From positions 521,497 to 585,496 of the forward strand of contig CAXXXD010000001.1 in assembly GCA_963663385.2 (NCBI GenBank): a stretch of 64,000 bases of DNA, read 5' to 3'. The translations under genes were made by a program, and so were the position numbers. This DNA comes from Oceanispirochaeta sp. GTDB lineage: Bacteria; Spirochaetota; Spirochaetia; DSM-2461. This document shows positions 8,920 through 64,000 of the stretch, piece after piece. The stretch's first letter is position 1. Each line of letters starts with the position of its first letter. The notes under the pieces are model-generated. The model ran no database searches. It was not told the origin of the DNA and worked only from the letters and a program-made list of their open reading frames with translations.

Positions 8920-9777
8920 TTACTGAGTAGATAATTCAGTATTTGTCCCGTTCTGAACTTTCGGGATATGACTGCTTATATTCGTCAGGGCATGCCCATT
9001 CTCCAGTAATGCTGTGGTGATATCCGGATTTGCTGCTTCCAGTCTCCCGACAGCTTTTTTAGCATCAAAAATATAATCCTTTTCTCCGCAAACATATGTC
9101 AGAGGGACTTTGAGGTTTTTCAGTTCCCTGTCAGTAAAAAGGGCCGGATTGTCCATCCGGTACCTGAAATGCCTGGTTAAAAGGACCTGGAATTGAACGA
9201 CTTCTTCCGGAACCGGAGCTCCGTCAAACATAATAGACAATAATTTTCTTATTCCCTTTTCCCCCTGTATGGAATAGAAGATGGTTTTTATCAGGAATGA
9301 TATTTTCGGCTTTACAATCCCGGTTGGAGCCAGAGCGATGACGCCGGCTGTTTTTTCCGGATAAGTCAGTGCATAGCGGATGACCGCCCACCCCCCAAGG
9401 GACAACCCTCCCAGTAAAGGTTTATCCAGAGCCAGTCTATTAATGACTTCATCGAGCCATAGACTGAAAGTATCGCCTTTTGTATCAAATCTTACAGCTT
9501 CGCTTTTTCCCGGTTCTCCCGGAATATCTAAACTGTATACCCTGTAGCTCTGACTGAGTTTTTCCATATCTCCCATCCACGCCAGTGAATTGGATCCTGA
9601 ACCATGCAGCAACAGAAGGGGGGGATTTTTTTCCTCTCCTGCCGAAACAATGAATGTAGTGCCGTATTTTGTTTCTATGAAGAAATGCTCAACCAGGGGG
9701 AATTGCTCCAGCATGTTATTGTAAAACCGGAGAATGCAGTCTTTTCCCTTTTCTGTTCTGAAAATCTCTTTGTTCAT
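8920..9777 (-). CDS. Alpha/beta-fold hydrolase
   Basis: LLLLHGSG, DIPGEPGKS, GLSLGG nucleophile elbow, GEKD and C-terminal GH. Confidence 0.9.
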   Translation of the reverse strand: MNKEIFRTEKGKDCILRFYNNMLEQFPLVEHFFIETKYGTTFIVSAGEEKNPPLLLLHGSGSNSLAWMGDMEKLSQSYRVYSLDIPGEPGKSEAVRFDTKGDTFSLWLDEVINRLALDKPLLGGLSLGGWAVIRYALTYPEKTAGVIALAPTGIVKPKISFLIKTIFYSIQGEKGIRKLLSIMFDGAPVPEEVVQFQVLLTRHFRYRMDNPALFTDRELKNLKVPLTYVCGEKDYIFDAKKAVGRLEAANPDITTALLENGHALTNISSHIPKVQNGTNTELSTQ

Positions 9778-9836
9778 ATTTCTCTCCTATAAAAAGTCAA
9801 TCATAAGCCTATTAACAAGCTTACAATTGAACCGGA

Positions 9837-10949
9837 TTACCCAGTTTTTACGGCATTGAATGCAGCCGCCTGCATCTTCAAGTACTTATCATCCGGAACC
9901 ATCTTCAACGGATCAAAGGGTTCACGGGTTTTCAATATGGAGTACACTACCGTACTCATCTTTCTTGCAGAGGCGATAATACTCGTGCCGCTGCCCTTGT
10001 TCTTCTTCATCGCTCTGTACTTCGTCATGATACGGTAATTGCCAGTCGTTTTCCGAGTTCTAACCATTCCCATAACACACTGAACAAATGCCGTTCTCAG
10101 TTCTACAGCCCCTCTCTTTGTTATATGCCCATGATGAATCGTCTCATTGGAGTTCTGCACCCATGGTACAAGACCGGCATAAGCCGAATACTTCTTGGCA
10201 CTGGCGTACCGCTTGATATCATCCGTATAGGCCCTAATAGTCGATGCCGTTATCAATCCGACTCCCGGGATCGTCTGCAATAACTGTACATCCTCATCTT
10301 CCTTTACAAGTTCCAGCAGGACTTTCTCTAACTGCTTGACCTGGTTCGAAACCTGATCTATCGTAGAAAGCAGCGGTTCTATCGCTTTGGCAGCGCTTCC
10401 GAAACTCCTATGGTCCACGAGACCGATGAGGATGCGCTGCCTTTCTTTTTTACTCTGCAGCGCAGCTCTTTTTGTTTCAATTCCATACCCTAGAAGCAGT
10501 CCGTGAACCTGATTCTTCAAAGATACGACTGATTTAACAAGGATAGTTCTGGATTTAAGAACTCTACGGATATCCTCACTCTCCTGAGAACAAAGCTGTG
10601 ATTCGGGAAGCATATCTTTTTCCAAGAACTCTGCTAGAGTTCTGGCATCATGCTTATCCGTCTTTTTCACTGATTCATTTACAACTTTGAATTTCAGTGT
10701 ATTCACAACCACCACCTCAATCCCTGCTAGCAATAGCTTGTTACGGAAGAACCGGGCATTTCCTGTTGATTCCACTGCAGCCCTAACATCAAGGCCCTCT
10801 TCTGTATAGGACACTGCTTTCTCAAGAAATGCTCTGTAACCGTCCTCAGAGGTCGGATACATTCCTGATTCACAAATGCTTCTATCATCACTCAGGAAAC
10901 AGACTGTTAACTGGGATTTGTGCAGATCCACTCCGATACTCATCTTCAT
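9837..10949 (-). CDS. IS110-family transposase/recombinase (370 aa)
   Basis: RuvC-like DEDD motifs IGVDLHK, AVESTG and KTDKHDA; C-terminal Tnp domain TIPGVG and SAYAGLVP..QNS..HHGHITKRG. Start placed at ATG 10949 behind an ATAGGAG RBS. Confidence 0.95.
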   Translation of the reverse strand: MKMSIGVDLHKSQLTVCFLSDDRSICESGMYPTSEDGYRAFLEKAVSYTEEGLDVRAAVESTGNARFFRNKLLLAGIEVVVVNTLKFKVVNESVKKTDKHDARTLAEFLEKDMLPESQLCSQESEDIRRVLKSRTILVKSVVSLKNQVHGLLLGYGIETKRAALQSKKERQRILIGLVDHRSFGSAAKAIEPLLSTIDQVSNQVKQLEKVLLELVKEDEDVQLLQTIPGVGLITASTIRAYTDDIKRYASAKKYSAYAGLVPWVQNSNETIHHGHITKRGAVELRTAFVQCVMGMVRTRKTTGNYRIMTKYRAMKKNKGSGTSIIASARKMSTVVYSILKTREPFDPLKMVPDDKYLKMQAAAFNAVKTG

Positions 10950-10964
10950 ACCTTCGCTCCTATT

Positions 10965-11149
10965 GCCTAAAACAGCGCCTGTACGGTGAATTGATTCCAT
11001 TCTCCTATCCGGTCTCGAAGACCATTGAATGTTTCGGTCACGGCTCTTCATTCTCCTGTACGGTCTCGGAGACCAGTAAAAATGGCGAACAGTAACCTGG
11101 CTGTTCTAAACGATGTTTAGAACATTGTATCAATCCACAAGCCTATGAA
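10965..11149 (-). ncRNA. Candidate bridge/seek RNA in the IS110 leader
   Basis: Perfect 10-bp hairpin TGTTCTAAAC-3 nt-GTTTAGAACA (11102-11124). Two 27-bp modules, 24/27 identical (10998-11024 and 11049-11075), carry ATAGGAG and ACAGGAG on the minus strand, matching the donor end and the target flank. Boundaries approximate. Confidence 0.65.
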
Positions 11150-11203
11150 GACTTTTTATCATTCCTCCTGTTAATGCCGAATAATTCTGGTAGGGGGCAT
11201 TTC

Positions 11204-11659
11204 CTATTCATTGGAATTGTCCTGCTTCAATAGCTGATCAATTATCAGCAGCAATCTGCTTACCAGCTGGGGAGATCCGTGAAATATAATTTTCCCCTTC
11301 AGCTCTTCTTCAAAATACATAAAATCAAATCTGCCTTGACCGTCTTCCGGGAGTTTAGAGTTCATTACTGCATTTATAGTATTGGAAATTCTCATAGCCT
11401 GATCCTTTCCTCCAATAAAACAATCAATAACCGCTGTTGTAAGAGGGGACTCCCTGATTTCAGAACTCTCCGGTGTATATTGTGGTGATTCCCTGATCTC
11501 TTCACCTGTATACACGCTTAAATCGTGTCCGCTTATCCTGTAACTTCTACCGACTTTTGTTGCCGTTAATTTGCCCTCCCGTATAAAACGCTGGACTGTT
11601 TTTTCATGAAGTTGCAGCAGTTCTGCTGCCTGTGCAACTGTATACCAGACTTCTTTCAT
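11204..11659 (-). CDS. Excisionase-like HTH (HTH_17) DNA-binding domain protein
   Basis: WYTVAQAAELLQLHEKTVQRFIREGKLTATKVGRSYRIS; TTGACA-17-TAATGT promoter-like signal upstream. Confidence 0.85.
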   Translation of the reverse strand: MKEVWYTVAQAAELLQLHEKTVQRFIREGKLTATKVGRSYRISGHDLSVYTGEEIRESPQYTPESSEIRESPLTTAVIDCFIGGKDQAMRISNTINAVMNSKLPEDGQGRFDFMYFEEELKGKIIFHGSPQLVSRLLLIIDQLLKQDNSNE

Positions 11660-11859
11660 TCCTTAAAACTCCTTAATGAGTTGCGATAAGTAACATTAGG
11701 ATGCATTAGCCTTCTTGTCAAGAAGTTTTGGGGAATCTTTTGGGGGAAATGAAAAATAATACCTGTTGTTTGTATCAAATCATTTGATCGGGTTTATTGA
11801 TCATCTGAGGGGTTAGGCAAACAACGGATCTGAGGTATTTCTTATGTGAGGAATTCGGA

Positions 11860-25185: not shown

Positions 25186-25860
25186 TTATGTCAATGTAAG
25201 GGTATTCGCCTGATCCATCAACTGCCCGGCAATTTCATACATATTGGAAACCGTACCGATTTTTTTCTCTCCGCTGAGTTTCAGATAGTCCAGGCAGGTT
25301 CCGCAAACCAGAATACGGCAACCATCCTTCTCCAGTGTTTCCAGATCTTTTAAACTTTCCGAACCGGAGCAGGCCAGAGAGACTCCCCCATTCATAAAAA
25401 TAAGACATTCCGGTTTGCTGTCCAGCTGAGTCAGGGTATAGATAAACCCTTTCATCAGCAGTTTTCCCAATTCCCCGTTTCCCCGGCCGATTTCCGGAGC
25501 TCCGATCATAATGGTTTTGGGAGCCTCCCCCATCCCCTCCAGAGGAGGGGTGCAACTTTCCAATCGCATCTCCCCTTTGGGGAGATTGAGAGGGGTCTCT
25601 CTGCGGGTTCCATCGGAACTGCTTTCGAAATTACCCGGTTCCGCTGTAATGATCCATGAGCTGTTTTCTTCCGGATTATCCTGCCATTGTATATTTTCGA
25701 CTCCGGCTTTATTCAGAAAACGGCAGACATTTTCCCGGGCGGCGCTGTTATTAACCAGAATCTCCAGTATCTGGAAATTTTCCTTTTCAAGGGCTTCCTT
25801 TGTTTTTAGAAGAGGGCGGGGGCAGGGGAGATTACGGGCATCCACTGTAAATTTTTTCAT
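25186..25860 (-). CDS. yedF: Selenium metabolism protein YedF (TusA/SirA domain + DsrE-like domain)
   Basis: VDARNLPCPRPLLKTK (TusA); IGRG..ELG..LMKGFIYTL, MNGGV and ILVCGTCLDY..IG.VSNMYEI. Confidence 0.88.
   Translation of the reverse strand: MKKFTVDARNLPCPRPLLKTKEALEKENFQILEILVNNSAARENVCRFLNKAGVENIQWQDNPEENSSWIITAEPGNFESSSDGTRRETPLNLPKGEMRLESCTPPLEGMGEAPKTIMIGAPEIGRGNGELGKLLMKGFIYTLTQLDSKPECLIFMNGGVSLACSGSESLKDLETLEKDGCRILVCGTCLDYLKLSGEKKIGTVSNMYEIAGQLMDQANTLTLT
25524..25598. repeat. 75-bp double-hairpin REP-like element (family A), in-frame within yedF
   Basis: 64/75 identical, ungapped, to 53806-53880; hairpins CCCCTCC-3-GGAGGGG and TCTCCCC-3-GGGGAGA. Confidence 0.85.
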
Positions 25861-26107
25861 AAAGAGTACTCCTGTTTTCAGATTTTACTATAAGATAGCA
25901 TTCGGCATAGGGAAACAGTTCTCCCCTGGCGATCTGTTCGATCTGTTCTTCATCCATAGTCAGTTCCAGACTGAAACCGCACTCAGCAAAAATCTCTGTG
26001 GGGGTCGGGATCAGTCGACTGGATACGGGCTCTTTCTTCATCTTCTTCTCGGCGGATAGGGCCTGATGGGTGGTCTGAAAGGTAAATAGAAAATTATGCA
26101 TCGGCAA
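25832..26107 (-). CDS. DUF3343 (Se/S carrier-like) small protein
   Basis: LFTFQTTHQALSAEK...LIPTPTEI.AECGFSL; typical neighbour of selD/yedF. Confidence 0.8.
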   Translation of the reverse strand: MPMHNFLFTFQTTHQALSAEKKMKKEPVSSRLIPTPTEIFAECGFSLELTMDEEQIEQIARGELFPYAECYLIVKSENRSTLYEKIYSGCP

Positions 26108-28298: not shown

Positions 28299-29918
28299 TC
28301 ACTTTGACAGGAGCGAAGGGTTCAGGATCAGGATGGCTTCCAGAACGCCCCCTGCAATAGCCCGGGCTTTATCCGAAATAATTCTGCAGTAGGAATCGTC
28401 CCCTCTGGGGTCTACATCAGCAATCTTGAATCCTGTCGTAACGGGCGTTCCATCAGCAATCATCCCCCGGACAACTCCGTCCAGAGGACTGTAGACAGCC
28501 GTCTCTCCCGACCGGGCAATAAGATCGCCTTTTCTGACAAGACTGCCGATATCCTTAACAACTTCCATAATCCCGTCCGATGGAGCCCGCACAACCCTTT
28601 CCGCTGTAAATCCGGCTATATTGCCGGGAACTCCCGTGTTTGCTTCCGCCTGCCCTTCCCGTATAATTTTACCAAGGTTATGGCCCCGGTTTGTTTCAAT
28701 AACCGCATGAACATCCGTCCCTGCCGTAAAGCCCGGCCCCAGACCGATTACGACAGGAGCCATATCCATTCGGGTCCCTCCGCAATTACTTTTGGCTATT
28801 ATGGCATCTACAACAATTTCCGGTTTGAGTCGCTTAATCCATTCCCCGTCGGGATCCGGCAGAACAGGGATATTCCCTTTCTCCCATGCCGTATGGATAT
28901 CTTCTTCACTCAGAGCTTTTACCGCTTTTATATCTTCTACCGTATACTCTCCTTCAACCAGGGACTGGGCAAAGGCAACGGTCCGGCGGATAACGGTCGG
29001 TTTTTCCATATCAAGAGCCGCGACCCGGAAGCCGCAGCGGTGCAGTTTGCTGATGGTTCCTGTAGCCAGGTCTCCTGCTCCCCGTATAATAGCCAGAGGT
29101 GCCGTCCTGTTTTGATTACTGAGAGAAAGTGATTTCCCGGAGGTCCTGCTCTGCTGCTGCATAATTTCAGCCAGAATACTGAGGGAAATTTCCTCCGGAG
29201 TTTCTGTTCCTATGTCCAGACCGACAGGAGCATAGACCCTGTCCAGATCCTTATGAGTGAATCCCGCCTCAATCATTTTTTCAAAAAAGAGTTTAACCTT
29301 TTTTTTACTGCCCAGGAGTCCAATATACTCTGTGGAAGTTCCCAGGGCTTCCCTGAGCGCGCTGACATCGTGTTCGTGAGTAGCAATAAGCAGAGCTGTC
29401 TTATTGCTGATCCATTCTCTTTCAATGCCGGTTTTAAGCAGGCTCTCGGCACTGGTTCCCGTGATACGATCCAGGGCTCCCGGAAAGCGCTCTGCTGAAA
29501 CCATCTCCGGTCTGGTATCGGCTACCACATAGGGGTAACCGAGGTAGTCCGCCAGCCGGGATACAGCCAGGTTCACATGTCCGCCGCCGGTCAGGAAGAG
29601 GGAGGGCTTGGGCAGGAAAACCTCAATAAAAAACTCCATATCCCCGCCGCATACCATACCGATGCTCTTTTCGGATTTTCCGCTGTCCAGTTTATAGGAA
29701 ACAGAACGGGATTCCCCCTCTTTCAGGCATTCCACAGCTGAGCGGATCAGCATCTCTTCCGCTTTTCCACCGCCGATGGTACCGAAGCTTGTACGGTCCG
29801 GAAGGACAATCATTCTGCCCTGACTGCGGGGGGCAGAGCCCTTTGAAGATGTTATGGTAACCAGGGCAAACGCCTTATTGCTGTTTTCAAGGGCAGCGGC
29901 TTTTTCAAAGAGGGACAT
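28299..29918 (-). CDS. yqeB: YqeB, selenium-dependent molybdenum cofactor protein (XdhC domains + YqeB domain)
   Basis: GSAPR, GTIGGG, GMVCGG and APVGLDIG..TPEEI (XdhC), then IIRGAGDLATG, DAIIAK, GLGPGF, ETNRGHNLG and SDKARAIAGGVLEA; start at ATG 29918 behind ACAGGAG. Confidence 0.9.
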   Translation of the reverse strand: MSLFEKAAALENSNKAFALVTITSSKGSAPRSQGRMIVLPDRTSFGTIGGGKAEEMLIRSAVECLKEGESRSVSYKLDSGKSEKSIGMVCGGDMEFFIEVFLPKPSLFLTGGGHVNLAVSRLADYLGYPYVVADTRPEMVSAERFPGALDRITGTSAESLLKTGIEREWISNKTALLIATHEHDVSALREALGTSTEYIGLLGSKKKVKLFFEKMIEAGFTHKDLDRVYAPVGLDIGTETPEEISLSILAEIMQQQSRTSGKSLSLSNQNRTAPLAIIRGAGDLATGTISKLHRCGFRVAALDMEKPTVIRRTVAFAQSLVEGEYTVEDIKAVKALSEEDIHTAWEKGNIPVLPDPDGEWIKRLKPEIVVDAIIAKSNCGGTRMDMAPVVIGLGPGFTAGTDVHAVIETNRGHNLGKIIREGQAEANTGVPGNIAGFTAERVVRAPSDGIMEVVKDIGSLVRKGDLIARSGETAVYSPLDGVVRGMIADGTPVTTGFKIADVDPRGDDSYCRIISDKARAIAGGVLEAILILNPSLLSK

Positions 29919-30696
29919 GGCAACTCCTGTATTCACTGTGTTTTTCTATATAAGGATTTGTATAATCCGATAGTTTCGTTATCAGTACCGTATCAATTCC
30001 CGATTTCCGGTTTTGAACACTGCGGCAGAGATCCATTACCCGGGAAAGGAGGTCCGGATCATCCTTCAGGCAGTCGGATTTGTTCAGGACAAGTACCCGG
30101 CGGGATCCGGAGGGTGTTCCCTTGAAGAGCCCTTCGGGATGCCGGATTATTCTGACGAGATGGTCCGTCGAAACCGGGTCGCCTTCGTTCAGATCTATCC
30201 TCTCCCGTACCAGGGGAAAGCGGTGAATGGTTTGGGAGGATGCCCTCTGTCCCAGTATATCGAGCCCTATGACACCGATGGTTACGGATGTTTTCCGTGG
30301 TATCTGAGGCTCATGGTCAGCCGGCATTTTAAGGGCCCTTTCCGATGCGCCATCCGCCTCAATCAGGGTCAGAGGCCATCTTTCCCCCTGCCATTGGTCC
30401 AGTTCTCCGGGGAGGAACCCGCGAATCTTCTCTTTTACACCCGAAACCATAGATACGGCTATCAGGCAGGGGGAGTGTACGGTAAGAGATGGCCAGTCTG
30501 ACTGCGGCATTATCTGTATGGATCTGAAAGGGTGTTTCCCAATCCGGGGGTGACGCATCATTGTTGTAGTTGTAGAAAGGGTTTTTCCCAGGCGGCGTTC
30601 CTCCGCCAGGGCATAAAGAAGAGATGTTTTTCCTCCGGCTCCTACAATACTGCAAATATCACCGCTCTGTAACTGCAGTTCTTCTGTCAGGGACAT
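29905..30696 (-). CDS. yqeC: YqeC, selenium cofactor biosynthesis protein
   Basis: IVGAGGKTS, TTTT, LIEADGA...LK.PADHEP.IP, HR and GLFK...VLNK. Confidence 0.9.
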   Translation of the reverse strand: MSLTEELQLQSGDICSIVGAGGKTSLLYALAEERRLGKTLSTTTTMMRHPRIGKHPFRSIQIMPQSDWPSLTVHSPCLIAVSMVSGVKEKIRGFLPGELDQWQGERWPLTLIEADGASERALKMPADHEPQIPRKTSVTIGVIGLDILGQRASSQTIHRFPLVRERIDLNEGDPVSTDHLVRIIRHPEGLFKGTPSGSRRVLVLNKSDCLKDDPDLLSRVMDLCRSVQNRKSGIDTVLITKLSDYTNPYIEKHSEYRSCHVPL

Positions 30697-63030: not shown

Positions 63031-64000
63031 GCTGAGAAGGACAATATGAAATACACTCGGGACTATAAACGGATTTCCCAGCAATTCAGTGTTCTGCAGA
63101 AAAAATTTCAACACTTCCAGAAGGCAGACCAACTCCGATACGAAGAAATAAAGGCTATGAACGAAGCTGAAGTCAAATCCATGATGCAAAAAATAATTAA
63201 GGCCGACAAAGTTATACACATGCAGCAATTGGGAATTTCCTATACACACCCTCCAGAATATATTGTAAATTATTTGGAAGGTCACGGCTCTGCAATGGGG
63301 ATGACTGGAGGTATACATGAAACTTCTTCCATTATTGAAGGAAGTCGAGCTGCAGGAAGAAGTGAAGGAGGGGAAGATCAGTCTGTGATGACCAGGAATC
63401 TAGAAGAGAGGGTTCCGATTGCCAGAATTAATGCAGTTTTCCAGGTGATTATTCAGGAAACCGGTTTTCTGATTGACTCCCAAATGAGAGAGCAAATCCG
63501 AAACGCTTCTTCCAAGGAAAGATATGCGTTGCAAGTGGAAGCAATGTGCAGTGCATTGAGCATAGAAAAAGGGGATATTGAATTGTTGGTCAATACATTT
63601 TATGAAAGTGCAATCCAGCCCTCTTTTATGGACTCTCAGTTGAAATTGGATGAAGAGCTGAAAGAAGAAGAGAAAAAAGAGGATCTGGAGGAGAAGAAAG
63701 ATCCAGACATGATGGATATCGAAGACCCCGAAGACAAACTAACTATTGACCCAGACAGTGTAATTGAAATTTTGGATAAATTCATGACCAAGAGAAGACA
63801 GAGAATGGAGCTGCCCGAGATGGGCACTGGAGTTCAGAAACGGAAGAAGAAGAATATGGAAAGCGAAACAGAGCAGATTGAGAAAGCGCGAAAAAGAGAT
63901 AGAGAACACTGGGAAAAACTCTCATTGGTATTGGACGAAGCCAAGCTCAATTTGTGGAATGCTCTGTATAATTCTTTAAGCAAATACTATGGACTACTGC
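63031..64000 (+). CDS. Fragment of eukaryotic-type dynein regulatory complex subunit DRC1 (CCDC164)-like coiled-coil protein; open to the window end
   Basis: 323 stop-free codons: DNMKYTRDYKRISQQFSVLQKKFQHFQKAD..YEEIKAMNEAEVK..QKIIKADKVIHMQQLG..P, ETGFLID and HWEKLSLVLDE.KLNLWNALYNSLSKYYGLL. Confidence 0.75.

Follow-up and report, generated by a model that had tools for sequence, protein, structure and literature searches.

A 1381-bp IS110-family insertion sequence of Oceanispirochaeta that is very probably RNA-guided into translation initiation regions

Insertion into ribosome-binding sites (RBSs) has been described since the 1990s for IS900 and IS901 of Mycobacterium avium, both members of the IS110 family, and the published IS900 target motif CATGNNNNNNTCTCCTT is the complement of a Shine–Dalgarno (SD) sequence, N6 and CATG. 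Targeting of initiation signals is therefore not new in itself. For IS621, the main description states that a 5' loop strand of the guide RNA pairs with the bottom DNA strand over 8-9 nt and the 3' strand with the top strand over 4-7 nt, the core being included in both (Durrant et al. 2024). According to the outline given for IS1111-type elements, their subterminal inverted repeats are usually 11-13 bp long with 7-bp left and 3-bp right extensions, the non-coding region usually lies downstream of the transposase, and the order of the two matches is reversed compared with the IS110 type (Siddiquee et al. 2024). In the present study, an element of this family was analyzed in a 64,000-nt stretch of an Oceanispirochaeta sp. 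genome (the window), where it occupies positions 9784-11164 on the minus strand. The element is very probably a 1381-bp IS110-family insertion sequence with IS1111-type hallmarks, active now or until very recently, and guided by its own RNA into initiation regions.

The left junction, read on the minus strand, is cattaAC-AGGAG (11169-11165)-GAATG (11164-11160)-ATAAAAAGTC (11159-11150), and the right junction is GACTTTTTAT (9798-9789)-AGGAG (9788-9784)-agaaat-ATG (9777-9775). The two 10-nt words were perfect subterminal inverted repeats (100% match in a repeat-pair search). An earlier sequence-only reading of the window had described the same layout, with AGGAG at both ends and the ATG at 9777, and this was borne out. 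The extent given there, 9784-11169, located the element correctly but counted AGGAG twice. The parts of the two junctions and the genes on either side were as follows.

Positions 11165-11169, minus strand: left-junction AGGAG, the end of the left target half with the predicted core; the same pentamer as at the right end, and the single AGGAG of the empty-site contig.
Positions 11160-11164, minus strand: GAATG, the left terminal extension outside the inverted repeat and putative donor half for the donor-loop 5' strand, which contains its reverse complement.
Positions 11150-11159, minus strand: left subterminal inverted repeat ATAAAAAGTC, with the -10 part (TGaTAAAAA) of the predicted junction promoter (repeat pair, computed joined ends).
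Positions 9789-9798, minus strand: right subterminal inverted repeat GACTTTTTAT, which with the upstream TT gives the predicted -35 box TTGACT (repeat pair, computed joined ends).
Positions 9784-9788, minus strand: right-junction AGGAG, the SD sequence of the downstream gene once the element is inserted (junctions, empty site).
Positions 8920-9777, minus strand: target gene, an alpha/beta hydrolase, with its ATG 6 nt past the right AGGAG (open reading frame (ORF) and domain search).
Positions 11204-11659, minus strand: upstream HTH_17 gene, with its stop codon (11204-11206) 34 nt ahead of the left AGGAG (ORF and domain search).

The source genome (four contigs, 5.3 Mb, 46.5% G+C) contained ten copies of the element, which were 99.57-100% identical and had intact transposase reading frames. 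In all ten, similarity began at AGGAG-GAATG and stopped at TTTTTAT-AGGAG, and the left AGGAG was preceded by AC in eight copies and by GC and AA in one copy each. The right AGGAG was followed by 6, 7 or 8 bases and then ATG in 10/10 copies, the frames starting at these ATGs stayed open for 98-689 codons, and the element was always co-directional with the gene. Furthermore, a same-strand frame of at least 80 codons ended 8-121 nt upstream of five of the ten copies. Another species of the genus possessed one copy (75% DNA identity) and another genus six (71%), and all seven showed the same junctions before an ATG. The expectation of the earlier reading that other copies would also lie in AGGAG-type RBSs was thus confirmed in 10/10 copies here and in 6/6 and 1/1 copies of these two relatives.

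For the empty site, Logan contigs of four sequencing runs were aligned to positions 9300-11700; contigs of this kind do not reveal a circle junction, and no go-back joint was found among them. One contig of run X6, from a related strain, joined 9783 directly to 11165. It skipped 1381 nt, with 5 letters fitting both sides of the join, so the inserted DNA amounts to 1381 bp. The contig was 1027 nt long with a depth of 2 and zero differing letters, and its sequence acAGGAG-agaaatATG is the ordinary RBS behind the HTH gene that removal of the element had been predicted to restore. Insertion was site-specific and without target duplication beyond the short shared core, as is characteristic of IS110 members. 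In addition, run X6 contained the element as a separate, deeper contig with other flanks and shared at least one other insertion with the source genome. In a relative from another genus of the same family, whose flanks were 70-74% identical to those of the window, the two flanking genes were adjacent, 52 nt apart, with AAGGAGG before the ATG and no element between them. The copies might also be regarded as fixed, inactive relics of an old transposition burst, and their activity is indeed deduced from sequence comparison. This explanation is highly improbable in view of the near-identity of the copies, their intact frames, and the empty locus in a strain that carries the same element elsewhere.

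The occupied sites were compared with the genomic background. ACAGGAG occurred 1462 times in the genome, 1444 times outside the element, and an ATG lay 5-8 nt downstream at 140 of these 1444 sites (9.7%). The position of all ten copies ahead of an ATG is therefore far beyond chance. The mean A count in the 7 nt after AGGAG was 4.7 at occupied sites, compared with 2.4 at unoccupied ACAGGAG sites with an ATG and 2.0 at the remaining ACAGGAG sites. Of the 195 ACAGGAG sites in which four or more of the following 7 nt are A, only 31 had an ATG, whereas all eight occupied ACAGGAG sites did. Moreover, the spacer between AGGAG and ATG was 6 nt in 32 of 51 occupied sites across the relatives and never 9 nt or longer, while the corresponding shares among 1334 genomic AGGAG-ATG sites with a long frame were 22% and 27%. 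ACAGGAG by itself does not define the target; an A-rich spacer and, mostly at a distance of 6 nt, an ATG are further features of the occupied sites. The other ACAGGAG sites pointed out earlier in the window, ahead of yedF (25858-25875), yqeB (29916-29930) and the KamA gene (33322-33316, then GTG), were located, but they fit poorly as targets because an A-rich spacer and an ATG are also needed.

The 211 nt preceding the transposase gene folded with -62.9 kcal/mol (z -3.21), and 0/200 shuffled sequences were equally stable. The consensus fold of 21 relatives had 26 pairs, 8 of them with compensatory changes, and kept the outer stem, the basal stem of the first loop and the distal hairpins of both loops. 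The two modules, which are internal loops and near-duplicates, were 84% alike. The first (target) loop consists of the 5' strand CAUUUUUACU, a hairpin and the 3' strand G-UACAGGAG-AAUG; the second (donor) loop consists of the 5' strand ACAUUCAAU, a hairpin and the 3' strand GGAUAGGAG-AAUGG. UACAGGAG is identical to the left flank, AUAGGAG corresponds to the right end TATAGGAG, and the left-end GAATG is matched by its complement CAUUC. A structured non-coding RNA with loops matching target and donor, the mark of the IS110 family, is predicted from these features, which are located as follows.

Positions 10960-11149, minus strand: non-coding region for the predicted bridge/seek RNA, with a 5' hairpin (11124-11102) and then an outer stem around two loop modules (fold, consensus).
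Positions 11075-11084, minus strand: target-loop 5' strand CAUUUUUACU, complementary to sense-strand AG, TAAAA and ATG, with conserved CAU.
Positions 11053-11060, minus strand: target-loop 3' strand UACAGGAG, equal to the left flank, which would pair with the bottom strand.
Positions 11002-11031, minus strand: donor loop, with 5' strand CAUUC (11031-11027), distal stem (11023-11011) and 3' strand GGAUAGGAG (11010-11002), the last equal to the right end TATAGGAG.

A 23-nt stretch inside the transposase gene (10410-10432) was 77-78% complementary to both loop modules; this stems largely from the palindromic stem and may be chance.

Relatives of the element were collected for a comparison of guides with flanks. 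A scan of species-representative genomes gave 76 loci, mostly in Spirochaetia assemblies, and the remaining ones in Desulfobacterales, Treponema, Leptospira, Dysgonomonadaceae and candidate-phyla assemblies. Another 80 loci, with 49-79% identity, came from a search of metagenomes with an alignment of nine proteins. In Lentisphaeria copies (33% protein identity), the plan was kept in 9/11: AGGAG, five bases and an 8-nt inverted repeat at one end, and the matching repeat, AGGAG, 6-9 nt and ATG at the other. With a parser based on structure, the two-module region was recognized in 132 of 173 loci; the 41 left out comprised truncated loci, a few decayed copies and the distant copies from Lentisphaeria. 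A narrower parser that demanded AGGAG and CA followed by T or G (43/80 metagenome loci) was dropped, as it would have made the counts of CAU and AGGAG circular.

The guides changed together with the DNA. For 18 guide families (genomes), the guide matched the left flank in 92% at -1 and 79% at -2, the two bases before AGGAG, compared with 59% and 38% in permutations, and 0/5000 permutations reached either observed value. No signal was present at -3 and -4 in the same families. Counted from the junction instead, the identity in 74 unique guide-flank pairs, metagenome relatives included, was 72-73/74 at -1 to -5, 66/74 at -6 and 60/74 at -7, and fell to chance level at -8 (19/74). These data indicate that the predicted 3' strand of the target loop covaries with the left flank over 7 nt. 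Furthermore, 22 loci had guides without AGGAG (CACGGAG, CGCAGAG, CGCAAAG, CACAAAG, CGCGGAG, AGGGGAG and TGGTCAG), and their left flanks carried the same words. In one of them (L152), the right flank GCGCAGA was the exact complement of the 5' strand, with the final CU opposite the junction AG. The predicted donor loop likewise covaries with both element ends: the right-end variants AGAAG and GGGAG were paired with AUAGAAG and AUGGGAG in the second loop, and the complement of the left-end 5-mer was found in the donor-loop 5' strand in 23/30 unique combinations, five variants (GAACG, GCACG, GCATG, GTACG and GTATG) included.

An ATG lay 5-8 nt past the junction in 79/88 unique flanks of the AGGAG type, that is, within an AGGAG-type RBS as the earlier reading would have it, and in 0/19 of the non-AGGAG type, the latter comprising the sister group described below and the Leptospira locus L080. 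The RBS association therefore follows the guide and not the protein family. It might be supposed that the recombinase protein picks the target, and that the loops resemble ends and flanks because a duplication of end sequences gave rise to the RNA region; the likeness of the two modules to each other and the presence of AGGAG in both of them and in the ends would agree with this. This supposition is the least probable of those considered. Guide and flank co-change at -1 and -2 and, in the sister group, over the whole heptamer, among recombinases that are 49-79% identical; the variant right ends go with matching donor guides; and RNA guidance has been experimentally shown for IS110 and IS1111 types (Durrant 2024; Siddiquee 2024). 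The inference of the sequence-only reading that the element is programmed to hit RBSs was supported by the copies, the empty allele and the covariation of guides and flanks.

The sister group, with 49-56% protein identity, had target guides reprogrammed to CRCRRAG-type words (metagenome loci L132, L135, L136, L140, L141, L145, L146, L149, L150, L152-L154, L159, L161, L162, L164-L168 and L185), and its flanks resembled tandem 8-nt repeats, e.g. GCGCAAAG GCGCGAAG. In a FastTree phylogeny of 82 recombinases, computed without bootstrap, rooted on a very long branch and built without named IS1111 or IS110 references, 21 of the 22 non-AGGAG elements fell into one clade (support 99) nested among the AGGAG types. 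This clade itself contained a supported subgroup of six AGGAG types, and three type changes were needed over the tree. L080, from a Leptospira assembly and 52% identical, had the guide GUUGAGAG without CAU and no ATG past the right end, and its left flank showed a terminator-like hairpin and ended in TTAGAG; it is either a separately retargeted or a decayed copy.

The sequence-only reading had taken the SD sequence itself as the shared core. AGGAG is indeed shared by donor and target, but the crossover core is most likely only the dinucleotide AG that ends it (CT on the other strand), given that AG terminates each target and donor of the clade, the non-SD ones too. A core GG at the symmetry centre of the inverted repeats was rejected, since the base after AGGAG varies in the targets and all targets and donors end in AG. 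The 10 bp that separate the repeats once the ends are joined would also fit the 7/3 extensions described for IS1111, provided that the core AG is assigned to the left end; sequence alone can neither fix this split nor place the crossover within AGGAG, and the latter point counts against the assignment of the core.

In addition to the SD side, the start codon is probably read by the target loop. CAU stood at a fixed place of the target-loop 5' strand in 54 of 59 distinct guides of the AGGAG type, the other five being parser shifts, and in 0/22 other guides; it was back in 5/6 AGGAG-type guides nested within the non-AGGAG clade. In a register test (45 guides, 82 unique right flanks), the five bases beside CAU in the guide were compared with the spacer, at 6-8-nt spacers only, where the registers differ, and the register counted from AGGAG served as a control for base composition. 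Counted from AGGAG, no covariation was found at these spacers (match 0.330 vs. 0.318 permuted, p = 0.34), while the register counted back from the ATG gave 0.435 vs. 0.349 (p = 0.001). With all spacer lengths included, 0/3000 permutations reached the ATG-anchored value. These results are no more than suggestive of a 5' strand (CAU and 5 nt) that tracks the spacer in register with the ATG.

A two-part address may be proposed on this basis, tentatively and with rather less than even confidence. One strand would be recognized through NN-AGGAG and the other through five spacer bases and the ATG, by means of a CAU that mirrors an anticodon; the address would be anchored at the ATG, and the lineage would be naturally programmed for gene starts as a class and not for one sequence, with a switch to 8-nt tandem repeats and back. 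As part of the same proposal, 0-3 unpaired bases (usually 1) may lie between the ATG-anchored half and the crossover, so that non-contiguous pairing would be tolerated, CAU may mirror the initiator anticodon, and the right end may imitate a terminator followed by an SD sequence.

The simpler explanation is that the RNA specifies just about 7 nt (NN-AGGAG) and a loose A/U-rich neighbour, while selection purges insertions in genes, CAU is structural and the ATG is unread. Several of the observations that weigh against a read ATG are also those that this explanation would account for. The match rates on the ATG side were modest (43% vs. 35%). The distance to the ATG encoded by the guide was 5 nt after AGGAG and that of most real sites 6 nt; a 1-nt gap would thus be required for pairing with the ATG, in contrast to IS621, for which contiguous pairing has been described. 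In the free RNA, CAU may have a structural role, as its CA is paired with an invariant UG in the consensus fold. Most ACAGGAG sites, moreover, lie away from start codons and probably within genes. The second-to-last base of the 5' strand showed no covariation with the flank and would mismatch the core G in 23/45 guides. Other cautions concern the analysis as a whole: the parser used fixed patterns and the unparsed loci were excluded, at least one counted mismatch pair (L153) was a parsing error, the permutation tests shuffled guide families with phylogeny uncorrected, the empty site was a single shallow contig with just 32 nt on the shorter side, and an Rfam scan of 9500-11500 with E up to 1 gave no family.

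Nevertheless, the explanation without ATG recognition is unlikely. A-rich ACAGGAG sites seldom have an ATG, yet the occupied ones all do, and the sharp spacer peak at 6 nt contrasts with a background of which more than a quarter is 9 nt or longer. CAU is missing from all non-RBS guides though their RNAs retain the UG partner, the subgroup inside the non-RBS clade that has regained AGGAG has mostly regained CAU too, and the covariation is confined to the ATG-anchored register.

On the favoured reading, in which the RNA guides the element to both sides of the initiation region, the following cycle may be proposed. The element would excise as a circle, and the joining of right and left ends would create a sigma-70-type promoter. 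The computed joined ends contained TTGACT, 17 nt and TG-n-TAAAAA (9/12 consensus positions), with 10 bp between the repeats, and the promoter is split when the element is integrated. From this junction, an RNA of about 190 nt with two internal loops would be transcribed, followed by the DEDD/serine recombinase gene. The donor loop would pair with the joined ends, AUAGGAG with the right end and CAUUC with the left-end GAATG. At the target, the 3' strand (NN-AGGAG) would read the bottom strand on the SD side and the 5' strand (CAU, 5 nt and NU) the top strand of spacer and start codon. Strand exchange would take place at the AG ending AGGAG (CT on the other strand), and the element would land co-directional with the host gene, inside its 5' leader. 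When the element is integrated, host transcription from upstream presumably supplies RNA and recombinase.

AGGAG, spacer and ATG stay intact at the host gene because the right end finishes in TATAGG. The claim that the downstream gene keeps an intact RBS was correct to this extent, but continued expression does not follow from it, as a terminator-like hairpin and a T-run lie just upstream. Hairpins at this position had different sequences in relatives (by eye). Together with CTTTTTAT, the hairpin scored as an intrinsic terminator, and it might shield the host gene from transcription that runs through the element. An outward promoter from the right end was rejected, since its -35 box would put the -10 box over the start codon, where ATGAAC is a poor match (by eye). 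A 10-codon small ORF at the left junction (AGGAGG-A-ATG) was also discarded, as the spacing is too short for a working RBS.

The remaining parts of the element were located as follows.

Positions 9837-10949, minus strand: transposase/recombinase gene, 370 aa counting the stop codon (Pfam, NCBIfam).
Positions 9797-9830, minus strand: right-end hairpin followed by CTTTTTAT, terminator-like (15 pairs, loop of 4) and overlapping the right inverted repeat.

The recombinase contained the N-terminal RuvC-like domain DEDD_Tnp_IS110 (PF01548, 8.7e-21) and the C-terminal domain Transposase_20 (PF02371, 4.6e-19). It reached 228 bits with the NCBIfam model NF033542 "IS110 family RNA-guided transposase", whose cut-off is 140. 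The solved IS621 recombinase (PDB 8wt6) was matched over residues 202-349 only, the C-terminal part (E = 9e-16). D8, E60, D98, D101 and S267 were invariant in nine relatives; by analogy, we take these residues to be catalytic. The non-coding region of about 210 nt lies 5' of the gene, and about 50 nt remain after its stop codon.

Compared with IS900 and IS901, the element likewise inserts into translation initiation signals, its antisense form being CAT-N5-7-CTCCTGT. Set against the published IS900 motif, the target proved to be built alike, an SD-like word being followed by a 4-7-nt spacer and then the ATG. In the descriptions available, IS900 carries the host-signal-dependent ORF hed on the strand opposite to its transposase and has no terminal inverted repeats, whereas here the transposase is co-directional with the target gene and 10-bp subterminal repeats are present. 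The orientation of IS900 to its target gene thus appears to be the opposite one. Furthermore, the right end supplies TATAGG so that a full AGGAG is rebuilt, unlike in IS900 as described.

The element resembles the IS1111 elements with a seekRNA (ISEc11, ISKpn4 and ISPa11), as published, in its subterminal inverted repeats and may also do so in a promoter at the circle junction, predicted here from the computed joined ends; its predicted RNA has the top-strand match 5' of the bottom-strand match, as in that group. Its repeats are 10 bp long compared with the usual 11-13 bp, and its RNA region lies upstream and not downstream of the transposase, which is the IS110-type arrangement and a rare exception among IS1111 relatives in the account cited. 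The absence of subterminal repeats and the bottom-strand match on the 5' side, which mark the narrow IS110 type in the descriptions of IS621 and ISEc21, were not found here. Judged by hallmarks and not by the tree, the element appears to combine IS1111 features (repeats and guide order) with an upstream RNA gene.

IS621, as described, is similar in its two-loop RNA upstream of the recombinase, in loops whose strands pair with different DNA strands (a pairing predicted here), in a longer guide on the 5' side and one of at most 7 nt on the 3' side, and in a CT core common to donor and target, which is probable for our element. In contrast to IS621, the guide order is reversed relative to the orientation of the element, donor and target share 5 bp and not 2, and the pairing on the ATG side may be non-contiguous. 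An IS621-type element with flipped cargo was rejected as an explanation, since the reversed guide order is the rule of the IS1111 type in the published outline (Siddiquee 2024).

Some further arrangements were observed among the relatives. In L132 and L155, a new left end (GAATGATAAAA..) followed 0-8 nt past the right end; such tandem copies are expected if the right junction stays a usable target. Downstream of the transposase of L058, two tandem right ends (..GACTTTTTATAGGAG, 16 nt, ..GACTTTTTATAGGAG) preceded the ATG, an arrangement that may reflect a lone right end remaining next to a full copy. Six left flanks from one Spirochaetia assembly (L034, L035, L040, L041, L043 and L048) shared a conserved leader of about 60 nt that ends in a hairpin and a T-rich stretch finishing in (T/A)A(T/A)AGGAG. 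This stretch was CTTTTTATAGGAG in L035 and L041, nearly identical to the right end of the element itself, and the leader may be a repeated regulatory leader or the footprint of earlier copies. The window (521,497-585,496) ends, at its position 64000, exactly where its contig of 585,496 bases ends.

Full-text literature searches found no paper linking bridge or seek RNAs to SD targeting, and the only mention of the SD sequence in the accessible text of a recent preprint (10.64898/2026.10.21.760802) concerns a riboswitch. The new features here are the co-directional orientation, the right end that rebuilds AGGAG, the 5-bp identity of donor and target, the explanation at the level of the guide and the natural retargeting. 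IS1111-family targets include attC sites, REP elements and transposon ends; the target of this element is instead a functional class of sites, the starts of genes.

The guide RNA offers an explanation at the sequence level for an insertion sequence that homes on RBSs. The clade is widespread, occurring in Spirochaetia, Desulfobacterales, Treponema, Leptospira, Lentisphaeria and candidate-phyla assemblies, and mixes hallmarks of IS1111 and IS110. Its dozens of naturally reprogrammed guides with their cognate sites form a data set from which the guide rules could be learned for the IS1111-type geometry, which has been studied less. If ATG-anchored pairing with a variable gap is true, it would loosen the rule of contiguous pairing in the design of bridge recombinases. 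In annotation, the elements mark true start codons. Moreover, they may silence or rewire the gene behind them.

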